From IMG/VR virus record IMGVR_UViG_3300007280_000474: DNA of 64,000 nucleotides, one strand, 5' to 3'. The DNA is from a virus (taxonomy: Duplodnaviria > Caudoviricetes). The notes below the pieces were generated by a model, which saw only the letters and a list, made by a program, of their open reading frames with translations, ran no database searches and was not told the origin of the DNA. Made by a program: the position numbers and the translations under genes. Shown piece by piece: positions 2,256 to 57,759 of the stretch; within the stretch, counting starts at the first letter, position 1, and every line of letters begins with the position of its first letter.

Positions 2256-2413
2256 TTACACCCTGCGTACAAGTTTGTACTATAAACAAACACAATGTAT
2301 GCACAGGCTGTAAACGTACGGTAAAAGAAATCTCAAATTGGACAAGATATAGTCCAAGTAAACGTAAACAAATAATGCGTGAGTTAAAACACAGAGACAT
2401 ACATAAAGAATGA
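2252..2413 (+). CDS. DUF1289-like small Cys-rich (putative Fe-S) protein
   Basis: Not in the ORF track; MITPCVQVCTINKHNVCTGCKRTVKEISNW (PCxxxC...CxGCxRTxxEIxxW); ATGA overlaps on both sides. Confidence 0.75.
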   Translation: MITPCVQVCTINKHNVCTGCKRTVKEISNWTRYSPSKRKQIMRELKHRDIHKE

Positions 2414-19893: not shown

Positions 19894-20781
19894 CTATTTG
19901 CCAATTGCATTACCATATATGTGTGCATGCACTCGGCTAGTATAATAATACCCACGTTGTATTGCTTCGTCGGCAATCATCGCTTCAGTCATCTTAAGAC
20001 CTTCTACTGTGCCTCCAACGCCCATAATCCAGACAGGCCAATCAACACCAACATTACGAAACGCTTCTGTGTGTTGTTCAACTTCATCCCAACTCTCCTC
20101 ACTTCCATTTACAACAAATTTAAGTTGTCCTTTATTAGATACTTCTGCATACTTGCCTACAACTTCAGGCTTAATTGCTTTCTTAGGTTGTTCACCTGCT
20201 GTACTCCATAACTTAGGCGACACACTCCAATACCATTCTCTGCCTACCCAACGTGAGTAATTTATTTGTACCCACTCGCTGAATTCATCTGTAATAGGCT
20301 TTGTGCCATTTGTTTCTACAGTGACTCGCATTGGCATGTTACCTCTGCTTTTAAATTCATCGATAACTGCACTCATACCTGGTTGTGTTTTCTTAAGCAT
20401 TGGCTCGCCGCCAGTAAACACCATATCGATATTCTGGCCTGTTTTATCATGTACAAAAGTACCTGTGGGCAAAAGTGCTGTAAGTTCATCTACAGCCTCT
20501 TCGACAGTTCGATCTGTGATCAAGTGCTTGTATTTCTTTGCCCATGTATAACTACTATCACAGCCTTTGCTGAACACAGGCAACTCTTCTACTACTTTAA
20601 TTCTAGAGATATCAATCTCTTCATAAGGTAGTTCCCAACTGTCTGGGTTTGTAGGATCGTCTTGCCCGAATCCATTACACTGTAAATTACACAAGAAGAA
20701 ACGCATCCACAGACTAGGAATACCTACGTAGGCTCCTTCTCCTTGCGGACTGTAGAATGTTTCACTGTATTGTAAATTCAT
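19894..20781 (-). CDS. queE: 7-carboxy-7-deazaguanine synthase QueE (radical SAM)
   Basis: ETFYSPQGEG..G.PS..MR..CNLQC...CDS, FTGGEP, VETNG, SVSPK. Confidence 0.9.
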   Translation of the reverse strand: MNLQYSETFYSPQGEGAYVGIPSLWMRFFLCNLQCNGFGQDDPTNPDSWELPYEEIDISRIKVVEELPVFSKGCDSSYTWAKKYKHLITDRTVEEAVDELTALLPTGTFVHDKTGQNIDMVFTGGEPMLKKTQPGMSAVIDEFKSRGNMPMRVTVETNGTKPITDEFSEWVQINYSRWVGREWYWSVSPKLWSTAGEQPKKAIKPEVVGKYAEVSNKGQLKFVVNGSEESWDEVEQHTEAFRNVGVDWPVWIMGVGGTVEGLKMTEAMIADEAIQRGYYYTSRVHAHIYGNAIGK

Positions 20782-23437: not shown

Positions 23438-24115
23438 TTACTTAGACGAATTCACAATGTTCATAAACTCATTACGAACTGCTGGATCATGCTTAAAGCA
23501 TCCACCTAGTTTGCTAGTAATGGTTGATGAACCGGTATCTTCAACTCCCCTACTCTTAACACAATAATGTTGAGCATCAACAATAACGCCAATGTTCTCA
23601 GTGTCGAGTATATATGACAACGCATGGTAAACTTGTTCAGTTAACCTTTCTTGTATTTGAGGTCTTTTAGCAAAGTACTCAACTACTCTGTTAAGTTTAC
23701 TAAGACCTAATACTTTTTCATTTGGAATATATGCCACTGTAGCAACACCATCAATAACAACAAAGTGATGTTCGCAGTTACTTTGAACGTTGATGTTACG
23801 CTCAATAACCATCTCATCATACTTCATCTTATTGTCTACTGCTGTACACTTTGGAAATGCTTCATAGTCGAGACCCCAAAAGATTTCGTTTACATACATT
23901 TTTGCAACTCTTTTAGGTGTGTCTACTAAACTATCATCAGTAAGATCAAGTTCAAGCAGTTTCATAATTTCTACAAAATGCTTTTCGATTGAATCAATTT
24001 TATCTGTACGTGATAGACCATTGCTTACTACTGGAGTTTCTACTCCAACAGATACTAGGTGTTCGTGGACTCTGCGACCCAGATCAGGGTCAGTTTTAGT
24101 TTTATTATAAGCCAT
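23438..24115 (-). CDS. folE: GTP cyclohydrolase I
   Basis: TPKRVAKMY, CEHH, GLSKLNR, QIQERL, HYCVKSRG. Confidence 0.97.
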   Translation of the reverse strand: MAYNKTKTDPDLGRRVHEHLVSVGVETPVVSNGLSRTDKIDSIEKHFVEIMKLLELDLTDDSLVDTPKRVAKMYVNEIFWGLDYEAFPKCTAVDNKMKYDEMVIERNINVQSNCEHHFVVIDGVATVAYIPNEKVLGLSKLNRVVEYFAKRPQIQERLTEQVYHALSYILDTENIGVIVDAQHYCVKSRGVEDTGSSTITSKLGGCFKHDPAVRNEFMNIVNSSK

Positions 24116-24186: not shown

Positions 24187-24402
24187 TCAAGAATCAAGTT
24201 TAATTATACCGTTTTCCCAATTTTCAGCAACGTCTTCAGCATAGTGAATACTTTTGCCTGGGACCTCCCTGCTTTCTCTCAATGTGTCATCTTCGAAGAG
24301 ATCAATCACATAAGTTGTGTCTGGACCTCTACTGCCATTGCCACCGTATGGCTCTTTACGAATTACTGCTGAACGACTCATTCCCTCACTCCTTGTTGTC
24401 AA
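24187..24402 (-). CDS. Hypothetical protein
   Basis: KSIHYAEDVAENW. Confidence 0.6.
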   Translation of the reverse strand: MTTRSEGMSRSAVIRKEPYGGNGSRGPDTTYVIDLFEDDTLRESREVPGKSIHYAEDVAENWENGIIKLDS

Positions 24403-24892
24403 AGTTCCACCATTGCTCGTATGGGAATACTACCCACGGATTGTTATCTGGTGTTAGTTCCCTTGCATAAAAGTCTACGTTTTGATAATTGCTTTGTGAC
24501 TTGCTTAACAGTGTAGCCACTTTAAGATTTACATCATTGCCAACTTCTAATGCGTGATCGTATATGACATCTTCAATTGCTTGAAGTGTAGTGCCAGTAT
24601 CGTTTATGTCATCAACTAACAACACCTTTCTATCAATATACTTCTCTAGTATGTGTTCGAGTGTTTTAATGTCCTCAAACTCTCCATCACGGGTCTGCCA
24701 ATTGAAACCTCTAAATGGAACATCAAAGTAATGGCTAAACATTACTCCAATTAGATAACCGCCTCTACCAGGACCAATTACTACGTCTGGTTTGTAAGCA
24801 TCGACAGACATGTCCCTTACTATACTTTGGCAGTCATTAACTAAGTTCTCATAGGAATAGAACAGTTTTTTCACTTCTGCTTTTTCTCCCAT
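24386..24892 (-). CDS. Type I purine phosphoribosyltransferase (Gpt-like)
   Basis: GRGG, VLLVDDINDTGTT PRPP loop, WVVFPYE. Confidence 0.9.
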   Translation of the reverse strand: MGEKAEVKKLFYSYENLVNDCQSIVRDMSVDAYKPDVVIGPGRGGYLIGVMFSHYFDVPFRGFNWQTRDGEFEDIKTLEHILEKYIDRKVLLVDDINDTGTTLQAIEDVIYDHALEVGNDVNLKVATLLSKSQSNYQNVDFYARELTPDNNPWVVFPYEQWWNFDNKE

Positions 24893-25839
24893 TCAAATGA
24901 GTGTTCGATTATTTCATCTAGTCCAAATACTGGAGTCCAACCTAGCTCTTCTCTTGCCTGTGTAATGTCAGCATAAGTCTTAGGTGGATCACCTGCTCTG
25001 CGATCTACGATACTGTATTTTGGGGTAATACCAGTAACACGCTCAAAGGCTTCGATGACCTGAAGCACACTGTTAGGAGTCGACTGTCCTAAGTTAAATG
25101 TGTTACTGGTATTTTTATCTTCGAGGTAATTAAGAGCGGCTAGATGTGCAACTGCTATGTCGTAGACATGCGTATAATCTCTTTCGCATGTTCCGTCTGT
25201 GGTATCATAGTCATTGCCGAAGACTTGAATCTCTTCATCATTAAGCACGGCTCTGCATATAATTGGCACCAAGTGACTAGCAGGCTTTTGAGTGTAGCCA
25301 TGTTCTAGTTCAGGGTCGGCACCTGCGGCATTAAAATATCGAAGATTAACAAATTTCAATCCGTATGCTCGGTCGTAGTCTGGTAGCATATCTTCTACCA
25401 TCTTTTTAGTAAGACCATATGCACTAACTGGTGCAGTTGGTGTGTCCTCAGTAGTTGGGAAGTTTTGTATATCCCCATACACACTGCTTGAACTACTAAA
25501 AATAAAATGTTTAACACCTGCTTCTACAGCACTGTTCAACAGTGAAATAGTATTACCTACGTTGTTCTCATAGAACACACCAGGCTCTGTTACACTTCTT
25601 CCAACCTCATGATCGGCTGCAAAGTGCATAATAGCATCTGGTTGTGTAAGTTTGATCACACCTTTCATTTGATGGTTGTCTAAATCAAATGGATACTGTG
25701 ATACTCCAGGTATTTCTTTTTTAACTCTATCAATATTAATAACATTATGACCTGCGTCTACAAGTAAGCGACATACCATGCCACCAATGTATCCACTGCC
25801 TCCTGTAACTAATACTGTCTTTGCTTCTTGATTATTCAT
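24871..25839 (-). CDS. galE: UDP-glucose 4-epimerase
   Basis: TGGSGYIG, FSSS, YGLTK, LRYFN, DGTCERDY. Confidence 0.93.
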   Translation of the reverse strand: MNNQEAKTVLVTGGSGYIGGMVCRLLVDAGHNVINIDRVKKEIPGVSQYPFDLDNHQMKGVIKLTQPDAIMHFAADHEVGRSVTEPGVFYENNVGNTISLLNSAVEAGVKHFIFSSSSSVYGDIQNFPTTEDTPTAPVSAYGLTKKMVEDMLPDYDRAYGLKFVNLRYFNAAGADPELEHGYTQKPASHLVPIICRAVLNDEEIQVFGNDYDTTDGTCERDYTHVYDIAVAHLAALNYLEDKNTSNTFNLGQSTPNSVLQVIEAFERVTGITPKYSIVDRRAGDPPKTYADITQAREELGWTPVFGLDEIIEHSFEWEKKQK

Positions 25840-27046
25840 ATTTTTGCCTTGCTACATGCTTTCTGAAACCCCAATTATCTCTGAGCCATCTAGCACCTTT
25901 GCCTTCCAGTATGTCCATTGTCCTATCAATAGTGCCATTCTGGTAGTCGCTAATTTTACCAATATTATACTTGGAAAGATCGTTTGTGTCAATACTTTTT
26001 AACATATTATCTAGTTTTTGTACTGCGTCATCGATGCTCCAAGGTACATACATATGGTGTCCGTTGTTTGCAAACACTTCTGGGAAACTTCTGTAAGCAG
26101 GATATAAGGTAAGTGTACCCATAGTGTCTGCTTCGCTTACAGTGTTGCTTACCCAATCTTGTAACGCACAATTAAATAGCACTTTACTATCTGCTAACAA
26201 ATTGTAGTAGTCATTCTTTTTAAGACCTGTGTAAACTCTAAAGTTTGCAGTCTTTGTCTTGCCTAAATCCCATGCATCTTGTAAGTCCATTGCACGTTTT
26301 ACATACCGTGGATCATTGCTTTTAAGTTCTGGGTGTCCACAAAATATAGCAAATTCAACATCTGGATCTATTTTGTAATAGGCTTCTGCTAAATCCATAT
26401 AAAAGTGTGGTTGCTTCTCGTCGTCCCAACGTGCGGCAAAGCCTACACGATTTGATCTATCATGTAGTAATGCAGGAGCAGGAACACGTTCCTTAACTTC
26501 TTCTTTACCATATGGTAGACCTGAAACATAAATTGGACACTTGAATCCTGCAATTCTTAGGTGTGCAACAAATTCTTCACTTGCAACAATAATACCATCT
26601 ACAAACTCATCAACCATTTGCTCATATCTACGCATCCAACTAAACATGCCTTCTCTGATTAAGAAGTCATCTGGGTCAGTAGTTTGTGCAAGGAACCTAA
26701 GGTATACTTTGGGTCTGTATTCCTTTGGTGATTGATCCATAATGTAAGGAAGGCATTCAAGTCCTGGTGTAAACATATCTTCATAAAAGATAACATCGTC
26801 ACTACTAATCTCGCCATTCTTCATTTTCTGTACAAGACTCATAGTCTGACTTAAACTGTAATAACTACGTCCATGAGCATCCAACACACTACCAGTTACG
26901 ATAGCCTTACTGTTGTCCAGTTCCTCACCAGTGATAATCTCATAGTCAATACCACGTGCTTTGAATACACGTTCATTCCAATCTTGCAACTGCAATGTAT
27001 AACGTGCCTCATAACTTTCGAGGCCCATGTAATATAGTTTACGCAT
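25832..27046 (-). CDS. GT-B fold glycosyltransferase (candidate DNA base glycosyltransferase)
   Basis: FAARWDDEKQP, NTVSEADTMG, YRSFPE; start re-assigned to MRKLYY. Confidence 0.75.
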   Translation of the reverse strand: MRKLYYMGLESYEARYTLQLQDWNERVFKARGIDYEIITGEELDNSKAIVTGSVLDAHGRSYYSLSQTMSLVQKMKNGEISSDDVIFYEDMFTPGLECLPYIMDQSPKEYRPKVYLRFLAQTTDPDDFLIREGMFSWMRRYEQMVDEFVDGIIVASEEFVAHLRIAGFKCPIYVSGLPYGKEEVKERVPAPALLHDRSNRVGFAARWDDEKQPHFYMDLAEAYYKIDPDVEFAIFCGHPELKSNDPRYVKRAMDLQDAWDLGKTKTANFRVYTGLKKNDYYNLLADSKVLFNCALQDWVSNTVSEADTMGTLTLYPAYRSFPEVFANNGHHMYVPWSIDDAVQKLDNMLKSIDTNDLSKYNIGKISDYQNGTIDRTMDILEGKGARWLRDNWGFRKHVARQKYE

Positions 27047-27200
27047 CTTTATCTTTCTCCTCAGATTGTGTATTGTCAGGTAACTCGCCGTAATCAACAA
27101 CTTGCGTTACTTCTTCGTCTAAGTTTCCTAAGTTACTGTTATTTAGATCTTTAGAATCTTTATCAGTAGTTTTTTTCGATTTTTCCATCTCAATATCCTT

Positions 27201-30586: not shown

Positions 30587-30769
30587 TCACCAATTGTGTA
30601 TTACATTTGCCATAATAAAGAAACATGTCATAAAGTTAACCCCCACAATAACAGTGCGGAGCAAAGCCACATAATTATCATAGGGTTCAGTTTTCTCATC
30701 TGAGAAACCACCTAATGCATATTTCCAAATAGTCCATACCTTACGCACTTTCGTACCTATCAAAGACAT
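30587..30769 (-). CDS. Small membrane protein
   Basis: IWKYALG.F.D.KT..YDN. Confidence 0.6.
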   Translation of the reverse strand: MSLIGTKVRKVWTIWKYALGGFSDEKTEPYDNYVALLRTVIVGVNFMTCFFIMANVIHNW

Positions 30770-31793
30770 GGTTAATTACATTGTTAACTCTAACGAAGTG
30801 AGCACACTTGGGCATATCCTTTATACGAGTTGCACCAATGTATGTACATGTACTTCTTACTCCGCCGAGTATTTGTTCTACTGTATTGCTTACAGGACCT
30901 CTATCCGGCATAACAATAGTCTTGCCTTCTGTGCCTCTGTAGCCGTCCTTTCTAGCACCATGTGTATCAAGTGCTGTTTGCGAACTCATGCCGTAGAACA
31001 CTCTGTTACCATCTACTAGTTCTGCTTCACTTTCTTCATGTCCTGCTAACATACCTCCTAGCATTACAAAGTGAGCACCGCCTGCTAATGCTTTTGCTAC
31101 ATCGCCTGGTTGTGTACAACCACCGTCAGCAATTATGTGTCCACCAACTCCATTAGCGGCATCGGCACAATCCATAATTGCACTAAACTGTGGTACGCCT
31201 ACACCTGTTTGTGTTCTTGTAGTACAAACACTGCCTGGACCAATACCAACTTTGACAACGTCAGCACCCTTTATAATCAATTCTTCAGTCATATTAGGAG
31301 TGACAACATTGCCGGCGATTATAATCTTATCAGGGTATTCTTCTCTGATACGTTGTACAAAGTCGATATAGGATTGATGATAGCCGTTAGCCACATCAAT
31401 TGTGATTGCTGGAATGTCTGGCCATGATTGCATTACTTGTTTTAGTGTTTGGTAATCAGTTGCATTGTTATCCCAAAGTGCACCAGTGCCAACGCATGCT
31501 GAAATGTACTTCAGTTCTAAGCCACTGCCCATTGCTTCTTTCCACTGTTCAAAGGTGTAGTGCTTTCTGATAACAGTCATCATCTTAAACTTCTGTAAGG
31601 TCTTAGCCATACTAAATGTTCCTACACCATCCATGTTACTAGCCATAATAGGCACATAACTTAGTGAACGCCCGCTGTTTCTAAACGAAAACTCACGCAT
31701 AATGTTTACGTCTTTCCTAGAGCTCAAGGTAGAGCGTTTAGGTTGTAGCAATACATCAGCATAATCTAAATGTATATTGTAGTCGATTCTCAT
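30741..31793 (-). CDS. guaC: GMP reductase
   Basis: LDYADVLL.PKRSTL.SR, SNMDGVG, IDVANG, GIGPGSVCTTR, GGVRSTCTY. Confidence 0.95.
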   Translation of the reverse strand: MRIDYNIHLDYADVLLQPKRSTLSSRKDVNIMREFSFRNSGRSLSYVPIMASNMDGVGTFSMAKTLQKFKMMTVIRKHYTFEQWKEAMGSGLELKYISACVGTGALWDNNATDYQTLKQVMQSWPDIPAITIDVANGYHQSYIDFVQRIREEYPDKIIIAGNVVTPNMTEELIIKGADVVKVGIGPGSVCTTRTQTGVGVPQFSAIMDCADAANGVGGHIIADGGCTQPGDVAKALAGGAHFVMLGGMLAGHEESEAELVDGNRVFYGMSSQTALDTHGARKDGYRGTEGKTIVMPDRGPVSNTVEQILGGVRSTCTYIGATRIKDMPKCAHFVRVNNVINHVFDRYESA

Positions 31794-31972
31794 ACAAATT
31801 GTCCTATTAAAAACATTGAAAGTAACATAAAGCCTAACACACATACCTGAATTATTGACGCCCATGCTACTTGCTTCATTGGGTGCATTTCTACTAGTTT
31901 ATCTAGTGCGTCTACATCAGGACTTAGGTTAACTGCCTGTAGTACTTTCTCTTCTGTTGATTTCTTATTCAA
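31790..31972 (-). CDS. Small membrane protein
   Basis: 60-aa ORF with C-terminal TM. Confidence 0.55.
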   Translation of the reverse strand: MNKKSTEEKVLQAVNLSPDVDALDKLVEMHPMKQVAWASIIQVCVLGFMLLSMFLIGQFV

Positions 31973-32484
31973 TCTATTACCTCGTCCTTAGTGTACTTTG
32001 TCCAATCTGTGAAGTTCTTTCTGGTTTGTAATTCATGTACACTATGACACCAAACTCCAGGATTAGTTGCTTTGAAGTCTTTATCATCTAACTTCAAAGT
32101 AGCATTATAATTAAACTGTGAGATGTATGGCAACTTAACACTTATCATCGGAATGAATGTGTCATACTCTGTCATACCTCCTTCTAGTACTGTTTCAGCA
32201 TACTTGACATCAAAGTCAAGTGTTACCCAAATACCTTCTTTAACTAGTTCCATACATAGTTCATCCCATGCAAGTAATTCCTTAGTATTGGATAAGTCTG
32301 GTTGATAACTTTGGTTTGCACCTAAATAGATGTGAGGACAATTAGAGTTTAATGCTCTAGCAAGTATCTCTTCTTTAGGCTGTAAACCCACTACAAACAA
32401 TGTACGTTGACCGTGTGCAGGTGAGTGCTCTACTTCTGTTCCTATAAAGAACTTAGTATCGTCTGTGTGTCCTTCTCTATCCAT
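31969..32484 (-). CDS. Hypothetical protein downstream of the DpdA/TGT gene
   Basis: G.EVEH.P..G.RTLFVVG, HIYLGAN, TNPGVW. Confidence 0.7.
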   Translation of the reverse strand: MDREGHTDDTKFFIGTEVEHSPAHGQRTLFVVGLQPKEEILARALNSNCPHIYLGANQSYQPDLSNTKELLAWDELCMELVKEGIWVTLDFDVKYAETVLEGGMTEYDTFIPMISVKLPYISQFNYNATLKLDDKDFKATNPGVWCHSVHELQTRKNFTDWTKYTKDEVID

Positions 32485-32702
32485 TAGTACCTCGTATATC
32501 CCCAAGTTAATAATTGTTCTGCTTGTTCGCATGCGGATTCGTATGGCACAATTTTTGATACCACAGGATTACCATCTTTTATTTCAGTGATCCTCACGTG
32601 GTCGTCTTGTTGTATCGAGTGTTGCATTAACACTTCGTGCCCTTCATACATGTAGCAACCTTCGATAGGTACTACACTAATTTTAGAATTCAAAGAAGTC
32701 AT
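32484..32702 (-). CDS. Hypothetical protein
   Basis: 72-aa ORF. Confidence 0.45.
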   Translation of the reverse strand: MTSLNSKISVVPIEGCYMYEGHEVLMQHSIQQDDHVRITEIKDGNPVVSKIVPYESACEQAEQLLTWGYTRY

Positions 32703-34245
32703 TTATTACCTCCTCCTTAGTAGTTCCTTCATCGCCTGCAAAACTAACTGCTGTTAGAAACTCATCATAATCAACTAGCATTTGTCTAGGATTAGGATTA
32801 GCAGGATCAAGTATATCCTCTGCAAACCTTTGGAACATTAATATATTAACCGGTACATATGGAGACAGTTCTTGTGCCTTGCTATTCTTCTTAGACTTCT
32901 GCCAACCTTTGTAGTTTGCTACATCTCTGTAACGTTCTACATCAGCAAGTCTATTTGCTTCTTGAACTGCATCAATATGATTGTAAACACTGTGAGCCAT
33001 GTAATACAAATAACTTTGTGTGTCCCATGTAGTACTATCACGTTCTGCAAACAATTGGTTGCCATCTTTATCTAACTTAGGTTCACCATGCTTGTCTGTC
33101 AATGGCTGTCCTTCGCTAAACTTGAAGTTACCATTCTTGTCTTGATCACCTGGACCCATTGTACATAAGTCACCCATCTTAAGCCTTTCCATAATAGGGC
33201 TATGACCAAACGGTGCTGGCAAGTCACTGCCAACTAAGTCTTGTTGATCAAATGCTCTATCCATAAAGTAACCAAACTTACCAGGCTCAAAGAAGTTATG
33301 TGCATAAGTTTGTCCATATGCTGTATTAACAAATGGACTAGCGGCATCAAAACTCAATGTGATGTTAGGGTTATCATGTTTGCGTAATTGTCTTTGTATT
33401 GCTGTTAAGAAACATGCCCACTGTAGTTTACCAGTACCTAAAAAGTGTATCCAATCTTTACCTTCAAGCAGTCCATCTTCACGCAAGTCTAGTATACGAT
33501 TAAGTACACACTTCATGTCTTTCATGTTAATACCAGCAAACGCATAGCCTTCTAGTGTACGATTTGCATCGCCGTATGCTTGCTCTACAAAACTTGGGTT
33601 ACTAAAGTTCTTAACTTGATCGTACCATTCTTTACTTGTTGCTTCGTCTGTACCACTTAGTACATTTAAGAACTTAGTTGCACCTGGTACTCTGTTTTGT
33701 ACAAAGTAATGCAAGTTAAGTAAACTGATATCCAATGTGTCTTTAAACTCAGTTAGTCCTGTTTTACTGCTTAGTGGTTCAACTGCAGCAAAGGCTGGAA
33801 TGTCTAATGTCATACTCCAGTCTGCTGTATGCTCTAACCAACGTAATATCTTTTCGCACATTTTTGTGCGAGCAGGATCATTAGGATCTTTAGCATTAGT
33901 CCAATCAAGTTTCATAACACCTGTAGCAATCTGGAAACCACCTGAGTCACCAAGTATTACTTTTACAGTATTACGATCACGCTCTTGTATCATAGGTTCG
34001 TCAGCATGACTCTTGTCAATGTCTAAGTGAGCATGTCCTGCTGAATACAATCCATATGGATAATGAAAGTATGTATCCTTGTCTTTGAGAAAGTCTAGTC
34101 CTTCGTTACCGTGTTCAAACCCTGCAGGAGTCCTGCTGTCCTCAGGCACTTTGTTGATGATTTTATCAACTTGCTTTACATAAAAACTACTAATGGCGGG
34201 CAGATATACTGCATAGTCTTTCTGTGATTTGCCTAAGTCTCGCAT
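32683..34245 (-). CDS. tRNA-guanine transglycosylase-like protein (DpdA-type DNA base-exchange enzyme)
   Basis: GDSGGFQ, MTLDIP, IHFLG, SFDAASP TGT motifs; no CxCxxC Zn site. Confidence 0.8.
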   Translation of the reverse strand: MRDLGKSQKDYAVYLPAISSFYVKQVDKIINKVPEDSRTPAGFEHGNEGLDFLKDKDTYFHYPYGLYSAGHAHLDIDKSHADEPMIQERDRNTVKVILGDSGGFQIATGVMKLDWTNAKDPNDPARTKMCEKILRWLEHTADWSMTLDIPAFAAVEPLSSKTGLTEFKDTLDISLLNLHYFVQNRVPGATKFLNVLSGTDEATSKEWYDQVKNFSNPSFVEQAYGDANRTLEGYAFAGINMKDMKCVLNRILDLREDGLLEGKDWIHFLGTGKLQWACFLTAIQRQLRKHDNPNITLSFDAASPFVNTAYGQTYAHNFFEPGKFGYFMDRAFDQQDLVGSDLPAPFGHSPIMERLKMGDLCTMGPGDQDKNGNFKFSEGQPLTDKHGEPKLDKDGNQLFAERDSTTWDTQSYLYYMAHSVYNHIDAVQEANRLADVERYRDVANYKGWQKSKKNSKAQELSPYVPVNILMFQRFAEDILDPANPNPRQMLVDYDEFLTAVSFAGDEGTTKEEVINDFFEF

Positions 34246-34435
34246 AGTTTCTCCTAGTGTGTCTCTGTAAGTTTATCTAGTTCGTCTAGATTGTGTTCAC
34301 CTAGTAACTCTACTTCAAACATATCGTTAGGTAGTAGTTTTACTGTGTGTGGTAATTCATACCCTTTGCTTACAAGAGTGTCTACCTTAACAGTAAACTC
34401 TCTGTAATCGTCTTTGTTTAGTACTGCTGTCATTA

Positions 34436-35191
34436 TTATCCTTTTGCTGGCAATAAGTATGTGTACTCACCAAGTCCACTTAATACTTTAATTTGCATTA
34501 AGCCTTGATCGTTAATGCTCATTACACAATTAGCACTATCGCTTAGACGTAAAATCTTTAACACGATGTCTAGTGGCCATTTCCAATCTCTTGTAATGCT
34601 ACCATCGATATCACTGTTAATGTGTACTTTTGCTCTATCACTTACGCCATCGCCAATGTGGAATGTTAAGTTAGTGCCATCTGTCTTAGGCGAGAACGTT
34701 GCTTCATATGCACCGAGGATACCATTGAAGTAGTTTAAGTCTTTCAAGTTCTTCGCTGTAGGAACAATGTTTACACCAAACTCAGCACCTTTAAAAGTGA
34801 TGTCTTTCATTTGCTGATTAACAACATCTGCAAGCATGAAACGATAGTTTGCATCGTTACCATCTGTGCTTTTGAATGCTACTTCAGTTGGTACTTCTTC
34901 ACCGTTACGTTCTTGCTTAACAACTTCTACTGTTGCATCTTCGCTGTCAAAGCCTGGGTAGTTCAAGTAACCTTGTAACACTCCCATTCTACTTAGACCC
35001 AATGTTCCGTCTACAAAGTCAGGCACTGGGTTAACAGTTTTACCTTTAAAGATAACAGTCTTCTCAGGATCAACAGTTTGTATTTCTGTTTGCTCTAGAT
35101 CGCCTGTGATCTTAACCATCTCAAAAATACCTAAGCCATGTGTGTGCTTCAGTACGTCTTTGAGAATGTCTTTAATATGATTTGTCGCCAT
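34436..35191 (-). CDS. DNA polymerase sliding clamp (gp45/PCNA-like)
   Basis: 251 aa near polB; C-terminal YTYLLPA; PolB and the TGT both end in PIP-like FFEF. Confidence 0.7.
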   Translation of the reverse strand: MATNHIKDILKDVLKHTHGLGIFEMVKITGDLEQTEIQTVDPEKTVIFKGKTVNPVPDFVDGTLGLSRMGVLQGYLNYPGFDSEDATVEVVKQERNGEEVPTEVAFKSTDGNDANYRFMLADVVNQQMKDITFKGAEFGVNIVPTAKNLKDLNYFNGILGAYEATFSPKTDGTNLTFHIGDGVSDRAKVHINSDIDGSITRDWKWPLDIVLKILRLSDSANCVMSINDQGLMQIKVLSGLGEYTYLLPAKG

Positions 35192-35217
35192 TATATTTTC
35201 TCCAATTTGATTGCGTA

Positions 35218-35246
35218 ATTATACTTTAAGTATTTAGATAAGTCAA
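35218..35246 (-). promoter_or_regulatory. sigma70-type promoter for the clamp-dpdA unit
   Basis: TTGACT-17-TATAAT. Confidence 0.8.
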
Positions 35247-35533
35247 GCATTTCTTGCCTCTTTTTTTCGATTCTTTTTATCAAAGTAATGCCTGATGATT
35301 GTTTTTCTTATTATTGCTATAGTCCCAAAGCAGATAGTTAAGTACACTGAGGTCCAAAATATCTCTTGCTCTTGTGTGTCTACCCACAATATAAATGTGT
35401 TTGCCGCAATGTATAACAATAGTATGTTTATAGGAAAGTTTATTACTGTGGCTATGCCTGTATCAATGCATGCTTCTTTGAATGCCGCCCATGGAAACCT
35501 ACGTTCCTTGACTATTTTGTATCCTTTACTCAT
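35243..35533 (-). CDS. Small membrane protein
   Basis: Two TM segments. Confidence 0.6.
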   Translation of the reverse strand: MSKGYKIVKERRFPWAAFKEACIDTGIATVINFPINILLLYIAANTFILWVDTQEQEIFWTSVYLTICFGTIAIIRKTIIRHYFDKKNRKKEARNA

Positions 35534-36317
35534 TATCTAACTCCAGTAGATTTGTTATACACACTCTGTTAACATCACCGCGTTTATATTTTGCATAATT
35601 GTCAGTCTTATCCAAACCAAATATAACGGTTGAACTTGGAATCAACTCATACTTGCGACATATACTCTTTTGCTTTGAGGCATACTTGTTTGGCATGTCG
35701 TCAGGTCCAACAGTTGATAATAGATCGTAATGATACTCTGCACTAGCCACTAGTGGATACTGCCAGTCAGCATACTGTGTGCATGCAAAAGGCTCTTTGG
35801 TGTACAACAATCCAACACGTCTTAGTCCTGTGCCAAATACTTTACTGAGTGAAAAACAAACACTGGTAACATTTTTGTATGGCTTGAAGTCAAAGTTAAT
35901 ATCTTTGCATATACCAAACAATGCACAATCTATAAAGATAGGCACGCCATAACTGTTTGCTTCACGCAACTTGTCTAGCGAGCAATTACCATCTCCACTG
36001 AACGGATGGCTTAGTATGATACAGTCCGCTTCACGCAAATCTGTAGTAACTCTATTGCCTAGTACTTTTTTATGGTAGCCGTACTCACCTTCGAACACAC
36101 CTATTTTATTATGCAATGCATACAGTTGATTGAACGCATCTGTGACTCCGCTAACAATATATTTCTTCCTGGGTAAACCTTTTACTTCTTGTACACTGCT
36201 ATGTACCCAAATATGAAACTTATGTTCAAACTCCGCAAGCTCACGTCTATTGTCGTTGACAATAGACATATCATAGTTAAATGCTTTTGCTGAACCTGTT
36301 AGTAAATCCCTTTTCAT
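35526..36317 (-). CDS. Fold-type I PLP-dependent enzyme-like protein
   Basis: FIDCA, FSLSKVFG..RVG. Confidence 0.7.
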   Translation of the reverse strand: MKRDLLTGSAKAFNYDMSIVNDNRRELAEFEHKFHIWVHSSVQEVKGLPRKKYIVSGVTDAFNQLYALHNKIGVFEGEYGYHKKVLGNRVTTDLREADCIILSHPFSGDGNCSLDKLREANSYGVPIFIDCALFGICKDINFDFKPYKNVTSVCFSLSKVFGTGLRRVGLLYTKEPFACTQYADWQYPLVASAEYHYDLLSTVGPDDMPNKYASKQKSICRKYELIPSSTVIFGLDKTDNYAKYKRGDVNRVCITNLLELDNE

Positions 36318-39011
36318 TTAAAACTCAAAAAACTGTTGTAGTGTTTCGCTCTCATGTATCTTGTCTAAGTCGAAACCCATTTGTCCAATAACGTTGCTTA
36401 CCTTCTTGTCAAGTACAGCATGTTCCATTGCCTCCTCATCGAATGGCAAATCCTTAAACCAATCTGGCAGTTGCATTTCATCTGTTGGGTATGCGATACT
36501 GTCATAACCCATTGCGTTACTCTTTAACCTACACACAATAACTTTCATACCATCAGTGATAGTCATACTGTAGTTGTCGCCCATTGCTTGTTTAAAGTTA
36601 TTCCAATTGATGCTTGCTCTAACGTGTCCTGGGATAGTAACTGTTTTCTTGCCTTCATTCTTTACAGCATTAAGTTTGTGTAGTCTGTAGTTGCCTGGAG
36701 CATCTACTTTTGCTTTGTCTGCCATCTTAGATGCATACAGTGTAAGGTTGTTTACACGTTTAGGCATACCTTTATTCCAAGCAGGCAAGTCTTTGAAATA
36801 CTTTTTGTAGTCTTTGATCTTGCTTATTACTTCTGGTTCTTTGTGACCGTTCAAACAATCAATTAGTATTTCTTCCAAGAAGTCCTGTATAAACTCAGGC
36901 GTATCAGAACGCTTCAAGTCCAAGCCCATTGCTTTTAGTTTACCGCCTTCTGGTTGCCAACCTTCCAAGTCTAGTACTTGGATAGCATATCTCTTCTTGG
37001 TGATAAACAAACCAGAACGTCCAACTACCTCACGCCCTGCTTTCATTACTTGTCCAAAACTCTTAGGCACGTTAAACGTATCTTGCAAGAACTGCGGGAA
37101 TGTATCACTAACAGTATCCGACACGTGATCATACAGTTTGATTGCACTATCCATATCAAGTTCTTGCCCTTCGGGCAATGCTGGAACAGCACTAAAATAC
37201 ACAGAGTCTGTGTCGCCATATATCATACAGTCACCTGTGTGATCATATTTGCCTGTGAACAAGCGATTAGTTTCTGCTCCCATGTGCTTGGTGATAGCAC
37301 GACCAGTAAGTGTAGTACTCTGTCCTATACGTTTATCAAAGAACCTACAATGTGGATTAAGTATCGCACCATACAAACTGTTCAAGTTAATCTTCTTAAC
37401 CAACTGTCGCTTGTCATAGAATGCTTTCTCAGCATCTGTGGTTGCTTCTTTCTTCTTAGCCTGTAACTGTTGTCGTTCTGCATACCAACGCTCTAGTAGT
37501 CCTGGCACAATACCTTGAAAGTCTGTTCTAAAGATTGTACCATTGGCACTGATATTCCAGGGCTGATCACTTTTGAATACCAAATTGTATACGTCTGCAC
37601 CTGTGCATTCAATGCTCTCACCAGACTCCATGTCTAGTTTCAACGGCTTGTTGATATCTTTAGCCATTACCATTTCAAATTCATTAGTACCAAACTTACC
37701 TAACCAAGCATCAGCAAATGATTTCTTTTCTAGTTTCTGTGCATTGTGTATTTCTTCATCTGTATACTCAGGTCTAATCTGTGCAACAATAGTTTCAGGA
37801 GCCATATTTAATGCTCTAAACACACTAGGATATAGACTGTTCAAGTCCATTGAGCCTACCCATTCATGGAAGCCTTTCTTAGGGAAGGCAACATAAGCAC
37901 CTGCCGCTTGCGTATCTTCATCTCTGTTACGTTTGCGATCAGGAACAATGTATCCACGTCTGTGTGACTCATTGATAATTGCTTGCTCTGTGGTTGCTAC
38001 AGCACCCATTGTTACAGGAAGCAGTACAGTATTGTCATGTGCAATAGTGTTTGCTAAGTCAATAAACTGTAGTTTCTTATCCAGTTTATCTAACAGCATA
38101 ACGTCTTGAATGTTATATTCTAAGAACTTTTCAAAGTCATGATTGTAAAGTCTATCCAACGAACCTTCATAGGCTACCTTCTTCTCACCTACTTCCATTT
38201 CACCAATGTAGTCTAGTCTGTAACTGTGTCGTTCCTCATAGTTGTATTTCCTGTACAGTTGCATATAGTCCAAATGTACACGCCCTATAAGATCATATGT
38301 TACACGTTCTGCTCCGAAAGCCTCATACGTCTTCTTCATTGGCATTTGATCAAACAAACAAAGTTTACGCAACTCTGCTTTACCAATAGTACGAATGATT
38401 CTGTTAACAGTGTAAGGAATATCATAACCCTCACTGTTCCAACCACTTAGTATGTCTGCGTCTTCTATGACTTCTAAGAATGTTTTAAGCATTTCTGCTT
38501 CTGTGCGGAACAACACGACCTCTGGCATCTTGGCTGCAATACTTTGTGCTTGGCCCCAACTGAGTGTCTTAGGTGGGACTGCCAAACAAATCATTGCGTC
38601 CATCCACTGCAAGTATACACCAATAGATGTAATAGGAGTAAATGAATCCTCAGGGGAACTATATCCACGTTGTGGATCAAAGTCTACCTCGATGTCGAAG
38701 AATGCTGTATGCAGTCTGGGTGGTTCAGCATTTATGTAATGCTTTGCTAGAGTTTTGTTAAGTGGCTTGATGTCACTTTCGAATGTAGTGTTATGTTGAT
38801 TAATGGCAACATTCTTTTTGAAGTCTTTGCCATTCTTACTACGCACCTCAGTCACAGACTGACCGTGTATAGTTTGATGTTTTCCTTTAGGATCGAGTAT
38901 ATAGAAATTATACTCTGGGTTTATGTCTTGAATAATTCTTTTGCCATCTACACGCTCTGCAACATGTATGATATCCTTAGCCTTATTCAGATACGCATCA
39001 ACGTAACTCAT
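36318..39011 (-). CDS. Family B DNA polymerase with 3'-5' exonuclease
   Basis: FDIE, GWNSEGYD, DLNSLYPS, KINLNSLYG, YGDTDS, KKRY. Confidence 0.97.
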   Translation of the reverse strand: MSYVDAYLNKAKDIIHVAERVDGKRIIQDINPEYNFYILDPKGKHQTIHGQSVTEVRSKNGKDFKKNVAINQHNTTFESDIKPLNKTLAKHYINAEPPRLHTAFFDIEVDFDPQRGYSSPEDSFTPITSIGVYLQWMDAMICLAVPPKTLSWGQAQSIAAKMPEVVLFRTEAEMLKTFLEVIEDADILSGWNSEGYDIPYTVNRIIRTIGKAELRKLCLFDQMPMKKTYEAFGAERVTYDLIGRVHLDYMQLYRKYNYEERHSYRLDYIGEMEVGEKKVAYEGSLDRLYNHDFEKFLEYNIQDVMLLDKLDKKLQFIDLANTIAHDNTVLLPVTMGAVATTEQAIINESHRRGYIVPDRKRNRDEDTQAAGAYVAFPKKGFHEWVGSMDLNSLYPSVFRALNMAPETIVAQIRPEYTDEEIHNAQKLEKKSFADAWLGKFGTNEFEMVMAKDINKPLKLDMESGESIECTGADVYNLVFKSDQPWNISANGTIFRTDFQGIVPGLLERWYAERQQLQAKKKEATTDAEKAFYDKRQLVKKINLNSLYGAILNPHCRFFDKRIGQSTTLTGRAITKHMGAETNRLFTGKYDHTGDCMIYGDTDSVYFSAVPALPEGQELDMDSAIKLYDHVSDTVSDTFPQFLQDTFNVPKSFGQVMKAGREVVGRSGLFITKKRYAIQVLDLEGWQPEGGKLKAMGLDLKRSDTPEFIQDFLEEILIDCLNGHKEPEVISKIKDYKKYFKDLPAWNKGMPKRVNNLTLYASKMADKAKVDAPGNYRLHKLNAVKNEGKKTVTIPGHVRASINWNNFKQAMGDNYSMTITDGMKVIVCRLKSNAMGYDSIAYPTDEMQLPDWFKDLPFDEEAMEHAVLDKKVSNVIGQMGFDLDKIHESETLQQFFEF

Positions 39012-54108: not shown

Positions 54109-54789
54109 CTATTTATCATATAAAGGTAGCTCTGAGAACAACTTTATCTTGTCTACTGTGCGTATATTGTTTTTAAATGATAAGAAAGCAAATGCTTCTA
54201 GGTCTTTCCACTCGTCAGCATCGCAGTACAAGTAGTTGTAAAACCATTTAGAGTACATAGAATTATCAGTGATAGAAAATCTATAGTCTTCAAAGTTATT
54301 CTCCACAAACGTATAGATTGAATTTCGTATGTCTTGGTCTTTACTGATGTCGGTGCCTTTGAATTTCCATGGGGTATTCAATCCAACACTGAATTCTATT
54401 CTAGTATCAAACTTTCTATACCAGTTTTGGTCTCGTAATACAAGCCCAGGTGTGTGCATATCCAAAATATGCTGTTCGCTAACAGGAACATGAACACTGT
54501 CAACATAGTCTGACATCCAATTAATAAACCATAAAAAGTCGTCCCACAACGAAAAGTATATGTTTCTGCTTTTAGGAGTATGCAATTCTCTTTTAAAGAA
54601 CATGTTGGTTGTTCGTAAGAAGTCCGTCACTTCCCAATGCATGTTAGGATCATACTCGGGGTGAGGATGTCCTGGTCCTTTTATACAGACACGATAAGGA
54701 TAGTCTCCAAAGTAAATTTTGGTGCTAGGATATATTTTTATTTTTTCGTCAACGTCTTTTTTAGTGCAGTGTTGTATGTGTAAAGTCAT
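54109..54789 (-). CDS. Hypothetical protein
   Basis: Start re-assigned to MTLHIQ. Confidence 0.55.
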   Translation of the reverse strand: MTLHIQHCTKKDVDEKIKIYPSTKIYFGDYPYRVCIKGPGHPHPEYDPNMHWEVTDFLRTTNMFFKRELHTPKSRNIYFSLWDDFLWFINWMSDYVDSVHVPVSEQHILDMHTPGLVLRDQNWYRKFDTRIEFSVGLNTPWKFKGTDISKDQDIRNSIYTFVENNFEDYRFSITDNSMYSKWFYNYLYCDADEWKDLEAFAFLSFKNNIRTVDKIKLFSELPLYDK

Positions 54790-56962
54790 ATTCTTCCCCA
54801 TCAAACAACACAGTGATTGTGGTATCTGATAGATTTTCAAAGAGTATTTTTTTACTGAGAGGCTTTTTGATTTTGTTTTCAAATACTCTCTTTAATGGTC
54901 TTGCACCCATAGTAGGTTCATAACCATCCTCTGCTAATTGCTTCCTTGCACCTTCTGACAATTCAATTACAACGTTTGATTCGTTTTCTTCTAGTAAAGC
55001 ATTTGTATCTTTAACTAGCCTGTCTACAATTAACAACATCAACTCTTCTGATAATTTGTTAAATTCAATTACAGCATCTAATCTGTTTCTAAACTCTGGC
55101 GTAAAGAACTTATTAACTGCTTTGTTTTGTTCGCCCTTCTTGGTTTGATCTCCGAAACCAATCTTCTTCTCTTCTGCCGCCGCGGCACCTAAGTTGGATG
55201 TCATCAACAGCACTACATTAGTAAAGTCAACAACATTACCTGTAGCACCTGTAAGTCTACCATCGTCCATTACTTGTAACAATACCTGTAATACTTCTGG
55301 TGCGGCTTTCTCAACCTCATCAAGTAGCAGTACACAATTAGGTGACTGTTCTACTTCTGCAAGCAGTTGCCCTTGGCCCATCTTGCCCTCAGCATGTCCT
55401 ACATAACCTGGAGGAGCACCAATAAGTTTAGCAACACTGTGACGCTCTTGATATTCTGACATGTCAAACTTAACAAGTTTAGCATCCATATGGTTTGCTA
55501 ATGCCCTTGCTGTTTCAGTTTTACCTGTACCTGTTGGGCCTACAAACAAGTAACTGCCCACTGGCTTGTTCTTTTCTCTGAGCCCTGCTTTACTTACTAA
55601 GATGTTTTCTACAATAGCATCAACTGCTTGATCTTGTCCGTATACCTGTCCTTTGATTCTTTGATCAAGTTCTCGATAGCCGTCCTTCTTCTCAATGTCA
55701 ATCATTTCTTCATTCATCTTGCTTACTTTAGACAGCACTGTAATAACATCGTTGATTGTAACTGTTTCTCTGCCTGCTAGTTTTACTCTAGCACCTGCGG
55801 CATCTACAATGTCTAGTGCCTTGTCTGGGAAATACTTGTTCTTGACATATCTGTCTGTGAGGTCTACTAATTTATCTAGCACACCATCTTCGTATTTTAC
55901 TATGTGGAAGTTCTCGTAATGACCTTTCAGTCCATTAACAATACGTTTTGTATCTTCTACAGATGTTTGTTCAATGTCTAGTCTTGCAAACCTACGCATC
56001 AATGCTCTGTCTTTGTCAAAACTGTTTGCAAATTCGTCTGGTGTAGTTGCACCAATAGTTAATAGTCTACCTTTGCCCAACACAGGCTTGATCATGTTTG
56101 CAACATCAACACTGCTGTTGCCGCCTGCGCCAGCACCCATAATCATATGTATTTCATCAATAAACAAAATAGTGTCTGGGTTATCTTCTAGCACTTCTAA
56201 CACTAGTTTGAGACGCTCCTCAAAGTCACCTCTGTATCTTGTGCCTGCTAATAAGTCTCCAATACTCAAACTGTATACAACTTTGCTACGCAATAGAGGA
56301 GGTACCTCACCGTCCACAATACGTTTTGCAAGGCCTTCTGCGATAGCAGTTTTACCTGTACCTGGTTCGCCAACTAGTACACAATTATTTTTCTTACGTC
56401 TTGCTAGGATATGTACTAAGTCATCTACTTCTGTTTCTCTACCAATAAGAGGATCAATACGATTCTTATTTGCTTCTTTGTTTAAATTGGTAGTGTATTC
56501 TTCTACAAGCTCTGCACTCTTGCTGTTGCGTATCTCCTTGTCTACTTGCTCTACAACGCCGTTACGCCCAAAGCCTGCTAGTTCGCAGTAGTATTGTGCA
56601 TATGAATTATCTTCGCTTAGAATGCTTGTAAACACGTCTAGTGGCTGTATTTGTTGCTTGCCTTGGAAGATGACTTGTGCTAATGCACGTTGGATAACAC
56701 GTTCAACTGCTTGCGTTTTCTTAGGAGAACCTTTGACACCGTGAGCTGCTTTGATTCCATTGAAGTCTTCGTTGAGTAGAAAGCCTTCTAAGTCTTGACG
56801 AATTTGTATTCTATCAACTTGCATTACTTCTGCAAGGTTCACAATGTCGTCACACTCTAATAAAGTGTGCAAAATATGTTCGCAAGTCAAGTACTCATGC
56901 TGAAGGTCTGTGGCATAATTTAGCGATTCTCTAATAATGTCATCTAGCAGTTTGCTATCCAT
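54761..56962 (-). CDS. clpA: ClpA-like Hsp100 ATPase
   Basis: GEPGTGKT, LFIDEIH, GPTGTGKT, LLDEVEKA, IGF ClpP-docking loop, MGARP. Confidence 0.93.
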   Translation of the reverse strand: MDSKLLDDIIRESLNYATDLQHEYLTCEHILHTLLECDDIVNLAEVMQVDRIQIRQDLEGFLLNEDFNGIKAAHGVKGSPKKTQAVERVIQRALAQVIFQGKQQIQPLDVFTSILSEDNSYAQYYCELAGFGRNGVVEQVDKEIRNSKSAELVEEYTTNLNKEANKNRIDPLIGRETEVDDLVHILARRKKNNCVLVGEPGTGKTAIAEGLAKRIVDGEVPPLLRSKVVYSLSIGDLLAGTRYRGDFEERLKLVLEVLEDNPDTILFIDEIHMIMGAGAGGNSSVDVANMIKPVLGKGRLLTIGATTPDEFANSFDKDRALMRRFARLDIEQTSVEDTKRIVNGLKGHYENFHIVKYEDGVLDKLVDLTDRYVKNKYFPDKALDIVDAAGARVKLAGRETVTINDVITVLSKVSKMNEEMIDIEKKDGYRELDQRIKGQVYGQDQAVDAIVENILVSKAGLREKNKPVGSYLFVGPTGTGKTETARALANHMDAKLVKFDMSEYQERHSVAKLIGAPPGYVGHAEGKMGQGQLLAEVEQSPNCVLLLDEVEKAAPEVLQVLLQVMDDGRLTGATGNVVDFTNVVLLMTSNLGAAAAEEKKIGFGDQTKKGEQNKAVNKFFTPEFRNRLDAVIEFNKLSEELMLLIVDRLVKDTNALLEENESNVVIELSEGARKQLAEDGYEPTMGARPLKRVFENKIKKPLSKKILFENLSDTTITVLFDGEEYDFTHTTLH

Positions 56963-56964
56963 CG

Positions 56965-57759
56965 TTACTTGTTACCTCTTTGTTTAATAGTATTTAATAA
57001 ATCTATGCTTTCTGGGTCAGTGATATCTGGTATATGTACGTCTACAATAACATATAGGCTACCTGTGCCTCCTGTAGTAGGACTTTGCATACCTAAACCA
57101 CTTAGTCTTACCCTTTCTCCTGGCTGTATTCCTGCGGGTATTTGTACAGAATACTTCTTACCATTGATGTGTTTTACTTTTATTTCGATTCCTGTTATTG
57201 CATCGAGAGCATCAATCATGTATCTTACATACAAGTTATCTCCATCTCTGCCCCAGTTGCTTGGTGTATCAACATTCACATGTACAAACACATCTCCTGG
57301 TGGCATGTTAGGATCACGTTGCCTACCTTTGCCTGCTACACGCAATCTGGCACCATCTCTAATGCCTGCAGGTATTCTAATAGATACTTCACTGCCGTCC
57401 GGCATGTTTAAATTAAAATTACTGCCGTTGTATGCTTCCTCTAAACTTATGTGTAGATTAAACTGTGAGTCAGGATTCTTTCTAACACGTTGTCCAAAGC
57501 CTCCGCCTCCGAAGATACTGCCAAAGATATCCTCAAAGTTCATATTGCCTTCGAAGCCTTGCCCGAATGGATTAGGATTATCGTACTGCTCTTTCTTTTG
57601 TGGATCGCTTAGAGTATCATATGCCTCTTGTATCTTTTTGAATTGCTCAGCATCACCTCCCTTGTCAGGGTGATGTTTAGAGGCAAGTTTTCTGTATGCC
57701 TTCTTTATGTCACTTGGTGAGCTGGTGCGATCAACACCTAGATGTTCGTAGTAATCCAT
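56965..57759 (-). CDS. DnaJ class B (CbpA-like) co-chaperone
   Basis: J-domain HHPD, G/F linker, C-terminal domain, no Zn finger; TTGACT-16-TATAAT ends 6 nt before the ATG. Confidence 0.92.

Follow-up and report, generated by a model that had tools for sequence, protein, structure and literature searches.

Why would a DNA polymerase and an enzyme resembling tRNA-guanine transglycosylases (TGTs) end in the same short peptide? This question is raised by a locus in a 64,000-nucleotide stretch of viral DNA (IMG/VR record IMGVR_UViG_3300007280_000474; the window hereafter). The window derives from an uncultured marine jumbo phage, and its gene for the TGT-like enzyme sits directly behind the gene for a PCNA-like sliding clamp. 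A sequence-only reading of the window had claimed that the family B DNA polymerase (PolB) and the TGT-like protein end in the same clamp-binding-like tail, and that the TGT gene lies just downstream of the clamp gene in the same unit. Our analysis suggests, with a probability of roughly 0.6, that the TGT-like protein is a clamp-tethered DNA guanine transglycosylase. By analogy with known clients of sliding clamps, protective DNA modification is probably physically hooked to replication in these phages.

The shared tail in the window

The translations bear out that the two proteins end alike. PolB (897 amino acids, 36318..39011, minus strand) ends in ...TLQQFFEF, and the 520-amino-acid TGT-like protein (32683..34245, minus strand) ends in ...VINDFFEF. 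Among the 355 open reading frames (ORFs) of at least 40 amino acids in the window, these are the only two with an FFEF end. The chance expectation for further such ends, given the amino-acid frequencies of the window, is 3.4e-4. The pattern [ILMV]xxFF[DE][aromatic/aliphatic] occurs twice in the 83 non-overlapping ORFs of the window, and both occurrences are the C-termini of PolB and the TGT-like protein. In PolB, the motif L-x-x-F-F-E-F makes up the last seven residues (36321..36341, minus strand). In the TGT-like protein, I-x-x-F-F-E-F closes a tail of residues 504-520 (32686..32736, minus strand). The codons of the four shared residues differ at three of four positions between the two genes, so the likeness is maintained at the protein level and does not reflect a recent copy of the DNA. 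Recent gene conversion is thereby ruled out as the origin of the common tail.

The two genes belong to a series on the minus strand that runs from PolB through a 263-amino-acid ORF (35526..36317), a 96-amino-acid ORF (35243..35533), the clamp gene (251 amino acids, 34436..35191) and a 59-amino-acid ORF (34254..34433) to the TGT-like gene. The intergenic gaps from the clamp gene through the 59-amino-acid ORF to the TGT-like gene are 2 and 8 nucleotides, and no terminator-like site was found between the clamp and TGT-like genes. Directly upstream of the clamp gene lies a sigma-70-like promoter match (11/12; 35218..35246, minus strand), which is a consensus match only. This layout fits the claim that the clamp and TGT-like genes form one unit.

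Conservation of the tail in related phages

We next looked at the tail and the gene order in relatives. In viral contigs, 67 loci with relatives at 44-98% identity were found, and two scans with distant representatives added 11 loci at 31-40% identity. Phage records contributed the PA5oct group (52% identity), Sinorhizobium phage Phosso (30%) and Vibrio phage 2.275.O (~30%). In all, the relatives comprised about 80 phage loci with identities down to 30%, including the cultured phages PA5oct and 2.275.O. No related loci were found in viral contigs for P0182, P0221, P0172 and P0236, or in genome contigs for P0182, and megablast of the window region against phage records gave no match. The order PolB, clamp, TGT-like protein is retained wherever the flank suffices, including in PA5oct and 2.275.O. 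In 2.275.O, a neighbour of 239 amino acids matches the clamp profile at 99.95%.

The form of the tail differs among lineages, and PolB and the TGT-like protein differ together. With few exceptions, FF[E/D][F/L] closes both proteins in the clade of the window (77-98% identity). In a clade at 64% identity, two residues follow T-F-H-S-L-F-[D/E/N]-F at the end of PolB, and the motif T-F-G-[A/S]-L-F-E-T of the TGT-like protein precedes an acidic extension of ~25 residues. PolB of PA5oct ends in F-D-S-L-F-G-W, and its TGT-like protein has F-N-S-L-F-D-V, also followed by an acidic extension. Both proteins end in ...L-F-D-F in a clade at 36-40% identity (L071-L079), with up to two extra residues on the TGT-like protein. 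They share a similar K-rich ...L-F-x-aromatic tail in locus L070, and both end in N-N-x-D-L-F-x-W in 2.275.O. Although ~175 kb separates the PolB gene from the TGT-like gene in Phosso, an L-F type motif closes both tails there too (L084/L002).

A MAFFT alignment placed the terminal FFEF of the window in the same columns as the internal x-x-L-F motif of distant clades, and the motif column is conserved inside an otherwise unconserved linker. In the clade of the window, the acidic extension is lost, and a motif like that of the PCNA-interacting protein (PIP) box, [I/L]xxFFEF, forms the extreme C-terminus of both proteins. The tails of the TGT-like proteins thus carry a hydrophobic-x-x-[L/F]-F motif that resembles the PolB tail of the same genome. 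The sequence-only reading had proposed tail conservation in homologues as a check, and the conservation went far beyond what was expected, with a lineage-specific match to the PolB tail of each genome.

The motif was counted in all proteins of the related loci. A C-terminal [L/F]F-type motif is present in 76 of 81 PolB homologues and in 30 of 77 TGT-like proteins, the remainder of which carry the motif internally. It is also present in 28 of ~3,460 other stop-to-stop ORFs, mostly antisense junk. Across the whole PA5oct genome, a motif in polar context within the last 60 residues was found in the C-terminal part of PolB, in the TGT-like protein and in three evidently spurious ORFs.

A profile search of 1.84 billion representatives returned 1,086 clusters with the TGT-like family at E <= 1e-3, and tail statistics were computed on 118 of the best 150 (50%-cluster representatives), namely those with a full-length protein. 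The extended motif lies within the last 45 residues of 66 of the 118 tails, compared with 30 +/- 4.4 after shuffling. An [L/M/I/F]-F dipeptide lies at most three residues from the end in 25 of them. The similarity between the PolB and TGT-like motifs of the same genome averaged 13.4, compared with 10.4 +/- 0.7 for permuted pairs (0/2000), a co-variation that is inflated since the loci are related. Despite this kinship, the point stands that distinct variants (FF-E-F, L-F-D-F and D-L-F-x-W) each appear in both proteins of one lineage.

Predicted folds of the transglycosylase-like protein and the clamp

Alignments of the TGT-like protein and the clamp (A1/A2) were built from related viral contigs, and both proteins were then folded. 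The AlphaFold model of the TGT-like protein has a predicted local distance difference test (pLDDT) score of 87.6, and its top 50 Foldseek matches in the PDB are all tRNA-guanine transglycosylases. VIA-align superposed the model on TGTs with Z-scores of 19.5-20.4 over ~305 of ~365 residues, at a root-mean-square deviation (rmsd) of 4.4-4.9. Residues 504-520 have a pLDDT below 50, which indicates that the motif sits on a disordered tail.

The D-S-G-G-[F/Y]-Q loop with the catalytic Asp of TGTs points in the same direction as the fold: D100-S-G-G-F-Q105 is invariant in 26 sequences with identities down to 46% and in 18 more distant ones. D148 is invariant in the family alignment, among several other positions. 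So are D300 in an S-F-D-A-A-S-P block, a candidate for the nucleophile Asp (Z. mobilis D280 equivalent), and C361, H418 and H423, candidates for the Cys/His zinc site; a CxCxxC pattern is absent. With hhalign, the family matched a phage 'TGT domain' protein at 93% (E 3e-7) across the DSGGFQ, LDIP and FDAASP blocks, and this phage protein itself has only a sub-threshold match to PF01702. With tblastn, the only homologues of the TGT-like protein were unannotated jumbo-phage proteins, and the best match to phage records annotated as TGT or DpdA had an E-value of ~1. The best viral fold matches in BFVD were to jumbo-phage proteins that lack annotation and to TGT-like proteins of phages, among them one of Vibrio phage nt-1; the match to a phiST protein was weak. 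On the predicted fold, the 520-amino-acid protein belongs to the tRNA-guanine transglycosylase superfamily, from whose other members it has diverged very far. The label 'TGT' is thus upheld by fold (Z ~20) and by the DSGGFQ motif, and it received no confirmation from family models. The name DpdA is one that we infer, because no DpdA or TGT sequence model matched at a curated threshold.

A sister family of phage TGT-like proteins has a different C-terminus. In Vibrio phage vB_VcorM_GR11A (L082:5713-7302), a Lys/Ala-rich basic tail of ~50 residues replaces the clamp-type motif. This tail may be a different way of holding the enzyme on DNA.

By sequence, the 897-amino-acid protein is unambiguously a family B DNA polymerase of the RB69/T4 gp43 type. 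It matches Pfam DNA_pol_B (1e-35), with an exonuclease domain, and phrog_262 (2e-196), and its closest solved relatives are RB69 gp43 chains (E 4e-54). The last 200 PolB residues alone found nothing when used as a query. In PA5oct, PolB is annotated as two pieces split by a Hef-like homing endonuclease gene (L001:1611-6837), and of these the C-terminal one bears the clamp-type tail.

The clamp, like the TGT-like protein, is recognised by its predicted fold. Its AlphaFold model has a pLDDT of 92, and the top Foldseek matches are all PCNA (E 4e-11). VIA-align superposed it on PCNA along the whole chain (Z 17-18, 224-231 residues, rmsd ~3.2). A profile search of PDB sequences gave nothing useful, and in Pfam and PHROGs the only match was phrog_12062, 'unknown function'. 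The model indicates that the 251-amino-acid protein is a two-domain protomer of a PCNA-type clamp. What stands of the label 'sliding clamp' is therefore the predicted PCNA fold, and here too confirmation by family models was not obtained. A T4 gp44-like clamp loader is present in 5/5 related genomes searched (E 1e-20 to 7e-29), which suggests that these phages run a clamp-based replisome; none was seen within the window.

Genes for 7-deazaguanine synthesis

According to published work, a DpdA-type transglycosylase is encoded by every virus whose DNA is known to contain 7-deazaguanines (PMC10516641). The window contains a gene for GTP cyclohydrolase I (FolE), the first step of 7-deazaguanine synthesis (23438..24115, minus strand; Pfam 9e-62), and one for a QueE-like radical SAM enzyme (19894..20781, minus strand; phrog_2076 8e-51). 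QueC was not found in the window. In 2.275.O (MG592671, L088:300-11500), the gene order is PolB, the clamp homologue, a pair of small ORFs of which one has a NUMOD3 motif, the TGT-like protein, an amidoligase-like protein, QueF, a YhhQ-type transporter resembling precursor transporters, QueC, an amidotransferase-like protein and FolE. This cultured phage thus combines replication and preQ genes in one compact cluster. In PA5oct, QueE lies near the TGT-like homologue, and a preprint reports that PA5oct DNA resists several restriction enzymes with G-containing sites, consistent with modified G (PMC12191111).

Other genes of the window may act around this pathway. Interspersed with the 7-deazaguanine genes are those for a purine-type phosphoribosyltransferase (24386-24892) and a member of the GMP reductase/IMPDH family (30741-31865), as well as a GalE-like epimerase (24871-25839) and a weak glycosyltransferase-like ORF (25832-27100). 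These enzymes could recover the guanine that is released, or they could supply a nucleotide-level 7-deazapurine route and further glycosylation.

Comparison with known clamp clients

Clients of the T4/RB69 clamp gp45 are the closest point of comparison. These include gp43, the late sigma factor gp55 and the co-activator gp33, that is, a polymerase and DNA-tracking proteins that, like the two proteins here, bear short and highly similar hydrophobic/acidic peptides at or near the C-terminus on flexible linkers. In both settings, the motif is terminal or has few residues after it. The sequences show that T4 gp43 ends in S-L-D-F-L-F-G and that gp55 has S-L-D-F-L-Y plus four more residues. The 11 C-terminal residues of RB69 polymerase have been co-crystallised on the hydrophobic patch of the clamp, the gp43/gp55-type motifs bind gp45, are interchangeable and function also when internal, and the gp55 linker is variable and probably unstructured (PMC2988020). 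In sequence, these features of the gp43 and gp55 tails all recur here together with a gp43-like polymerase, which makes the clamp the likely partner. The two systems differ in that the extra client here is a putative base-exchange DNA-modification enzyme, whereas in T4 it is a transcription factor. The clamp here is most PCNA-like among solved structures and has no sequence-model match to gp45, and docking on it is proposed by analogy.

Clients that bind PCNA through a PIP box offer a second comparison. DNMT1 is one such client. UNG2, MPG, NTH1 and hMYH are listed as others (PMC9690074 Table 1). Like the TGT-like protein, these are DNA-modifying or base-flipping enzymes with a short motif of two adjacent aromatics for the replication clamp. 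The window tails fit the [I/L]xxFF core of the PIP box Qxx[I/L]xxFF (PMC9690074) and lack its leading Q, and this core accords with the PCNA-like fold of the clamp. Unlike those of the PIP-box clients, the setting here is viral/prokaryotic, and the enzyme is a putative 7-deazaguanine-inserting transglycosylase, not a methylase or repair glycosylase.

The bacterial beta clamp shares with this locus a short C-terminal ...LF peptide common to polymerases and repair enzymes, with the motif QL(S/D)LF (PMC9690074). Its protomer, DnaN, has three domains, whereas the adjacent cognate clamp here appears to be a two-domain PCNA-like protomer. The viral enzymes DpdA1-4 resemble the protein studied here in being phage-encoded, in having a TGT-superfamily fold and in occurring with FolE/QueE (QueC/QueF in relatives), but the present protein is larger (520 amino acids) and too divergent in sequence for the Pfam TGT model. 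The study of viral DpdA describes no clamp-docking tail or replisome link and never mentions a clamp (PMC10516641), and the literature searched contained nothing that connects DpdA to a sliding clamp, to PCNA or to the replisome.

A proposed clamp-tethered transglycosylase and its alternatives

We propose that the 520-amino-acid protein acts as the DpdA-type enzyme of a phage pathway for 7-deazaguanine DNA modification. Its flexible linker would bear a short hydrophobic/acidic peptide of the same kind as the end of the phage's own PolB. By analogy with gp43, gp55, gp33 and the PIP-box clients, this peptide would dock in a hydrophobic pocket of the PCNA-like trimeric clamp that is encoded immediately upstream. 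Clamps loaded at the fork or left behind it would hold the enzyme on newly made duplex, and guanine would be exchanged for a 7-deazaguanine base while the DNA is copied. The sequence-only reading had likewise put the enzyme on the clamp, with DNA as the favoured substrate, and its computable parts were borne out. We infer the binding of peptide to clamp, DNA as the substrate and the coupling to replication. Functionally, the protein looks like a new client of the phage clamp toolbelt and a viral analogue of the PCNA-tethered base-modifying enzymes.

Several observations weigh against this proposal. The motif is degenerate in some relatives (M-W-G or none clear in L043, L045, L047, L049 and L050), and about one third of the distant representatives have no motif. 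The TGT-like protein has no Pfam match (E <= 0.01), PF01702 at its gathering score included, and no PHROG or PDB sequence match, and its family profile aligned weakly with E. coli Tgt in hhalign (14.6%), in a plausible register. The PA5oct clamp homologue is labelled a virion 'structural protein' from mass spectrometry. A protein with replication as its sole role would not be expected to carry this label, yet the fold and the gene position weigh more. The similarity of the tail to the beta-clamp motif and the presence of the phosphoribosyltransferase and GMP reductase genes, which allow a nucleotide-pool route to modified DNA, also count against the proposal, and each supports a different explanation.

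If the beta-clamp motif is taken as the model, the polymerase and the transglycosylase would both dock on the host sliding clamp, DnaN. Many family tails end in ...[S/D]LF or in ...LF plus one to three residues, near the QL(S/D)LF consensus (PMC9690074), and in Phosso no homology to the clamp was detectable in the protein encoded upstream of the TGT-like gene. However, the phage's own clamp gene lies between the PolB and TGT-like genes, an adjacency found in essentially every locus with enough flank, and related genomes encode a T4-type clamp loader. Moreover, PolB is gp43-like and the gp43 tail binds the phage clamp (PMC2988020), and the core of PCNA PIP boxes, [I/L]xxFF, recurs in the window motif. 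Docking on the host clamp is unlikely on this balance. Acidic-hydrophobic tails serve other replisome contacts too, and the direct evidence consists only of the shared, conserved, disordered peptide. The tail could accordingly be a signal for the clamp loader, the helicase-primase, a single-strand-binding protein, a replication compartment or a protease. We consider this slightly less probable than the host clamp, given that the clamp gene is immediately upstream of the TGT-like gene and that PolB has a homologue in RB69/T4 gp43, for which a co-crystal of the equivalent C-terminal peptide and the clamp exists (PMC2988020).

A further explanation concerns the enzyme and not its tail. The TGT-fold protein might act on tRNA or other RNA, or without base exchange, and any modified bases in the DNA would then arrive by way of the nucleotide pool and the polymerase. 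Every solved structure that matches is a tRNA enzyme, the phosphoribosyltransferase and GMP reductase beside FolE/QueE give a toyocamycin-like gene content, and the window has no QueC that we could find. Yet a polymerase-like tail makes little sense on a tRNA enzyme, and in relatives the TGT-like gene is in a replication module behind PolB and the clamp. The invariable presence of a DpdA-type transglycosylase in viruses known to have 7-deazaguanine DNA (PMC10516641) and the G-modified behaviour of PA5oct DNA (PMC12191111) also count against this reading, and we regard an RNA or nucleotide-pool role as improbable, about as much as a different partner for the tail. Finally, the motif is short (4-7 residues), and the likeness of the two tails could be coincidence or composition. 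This is effectively refuted: 3e-4 further ends are expected in the window, the pairing recurs with different motif variants in clades down to 30% identity, and the shuffling and permutation controls were exceeded.

Published work treats phage 7-deazaguanine modification as post-replicative base exchange and leaves the very high or complete replacement in some systems unexplained (PMC10516641). If the TGT-like protein is indeed tethered to the clamp, a clamp-docked transglycosylase would be a concrete mechanism for such high or complete replacement levels. A DNA hypermodification enzyme would then join the clamp 'toolbelt' of prokaryotic viruses, in parallel to DNMT1 and UNG2 on PCNA, and a very abundant family of hypothetical proteins of marine jumbo phages would gain a function. 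We see roughly even odds for the broader proposition that this large unannotated viral TGT-fold family, which is abundant in marine jumbo phages and comprises >1,000 clusters at 50% identity, consists of DNA guanine transglycosylases that are replisome components and ride the phage clamp via a polymerase-like peptide, making 7-deazaguanine insertion co-replicative in practice and chemically post-synthetic. What the present analysis adds is the clade with a PIP-like terminal motif, the near-identical tails of 2.275.O beside a full preQ-type cluster and the specificity of the motif across the whole PA5oct genome. PA5oct and Vibrio phage 2.275.O are cultured relatives, which makes an experimental test practical.

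Other features of the window and related loci

The remaining ORFs between PolB and the TGT-like gene have little annotation. The 263-amino-acid ORF between PolB and the clamp gene has no Pfam or PHROG match, and few relatives have it. The 96-amino-acid ORF is small and hydrophobic (membrane) and belongs to phrog_4276, of unknown function. The 59-amino-acid ORF between the clamp and TGT-like genes has no family match. A 72-amino-acid ORF (32484-32702) begins within the last 20 nucleotides of the TGT-like gene in a different frame; if this ORF is real, the tail codons of the TGT-like gene may be doubly constrained.

Clamp-motif-like ends also occur in a few other proteins. Within the window, the sole further match to a relaxed motif in a long protein was in a ClpB-like ATPase. 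It lies inside the D2-small domain, which is folded, and was therefore rejected as a clamp client. Among the related loci, a 249-amino-acid ORF (L060-L062:2808-3557) ends in ...Y-F-F-G-D-N and a 108-amino-acid ORF (L046:13578-13904) ends in ...F-M-D-L-F-D. From these ends, both are possible additional clamp clients. A hypothetical protein of 531 amino acids in PA5oct (MK797984, 128846-130441; L111) ends in an acidic run plus M-P-M-P-F-L-F, which is similar to the tail of single-strand-binding proteins or to the clamp motif, and its gene is flanked by genes annotated as structural.

Two further gene groups lie elsewhere in the window. Genes for a ClpB-like double-AAA chaperone (733 amino acids) and a DnaJ homologue (264 amino acids) are adjacent at 54761-57759. 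A carbamoyltransferase with N- and C-terminal domains is encoded at 2410-3921, upstream of a repeat protein of 1495 amino acids.

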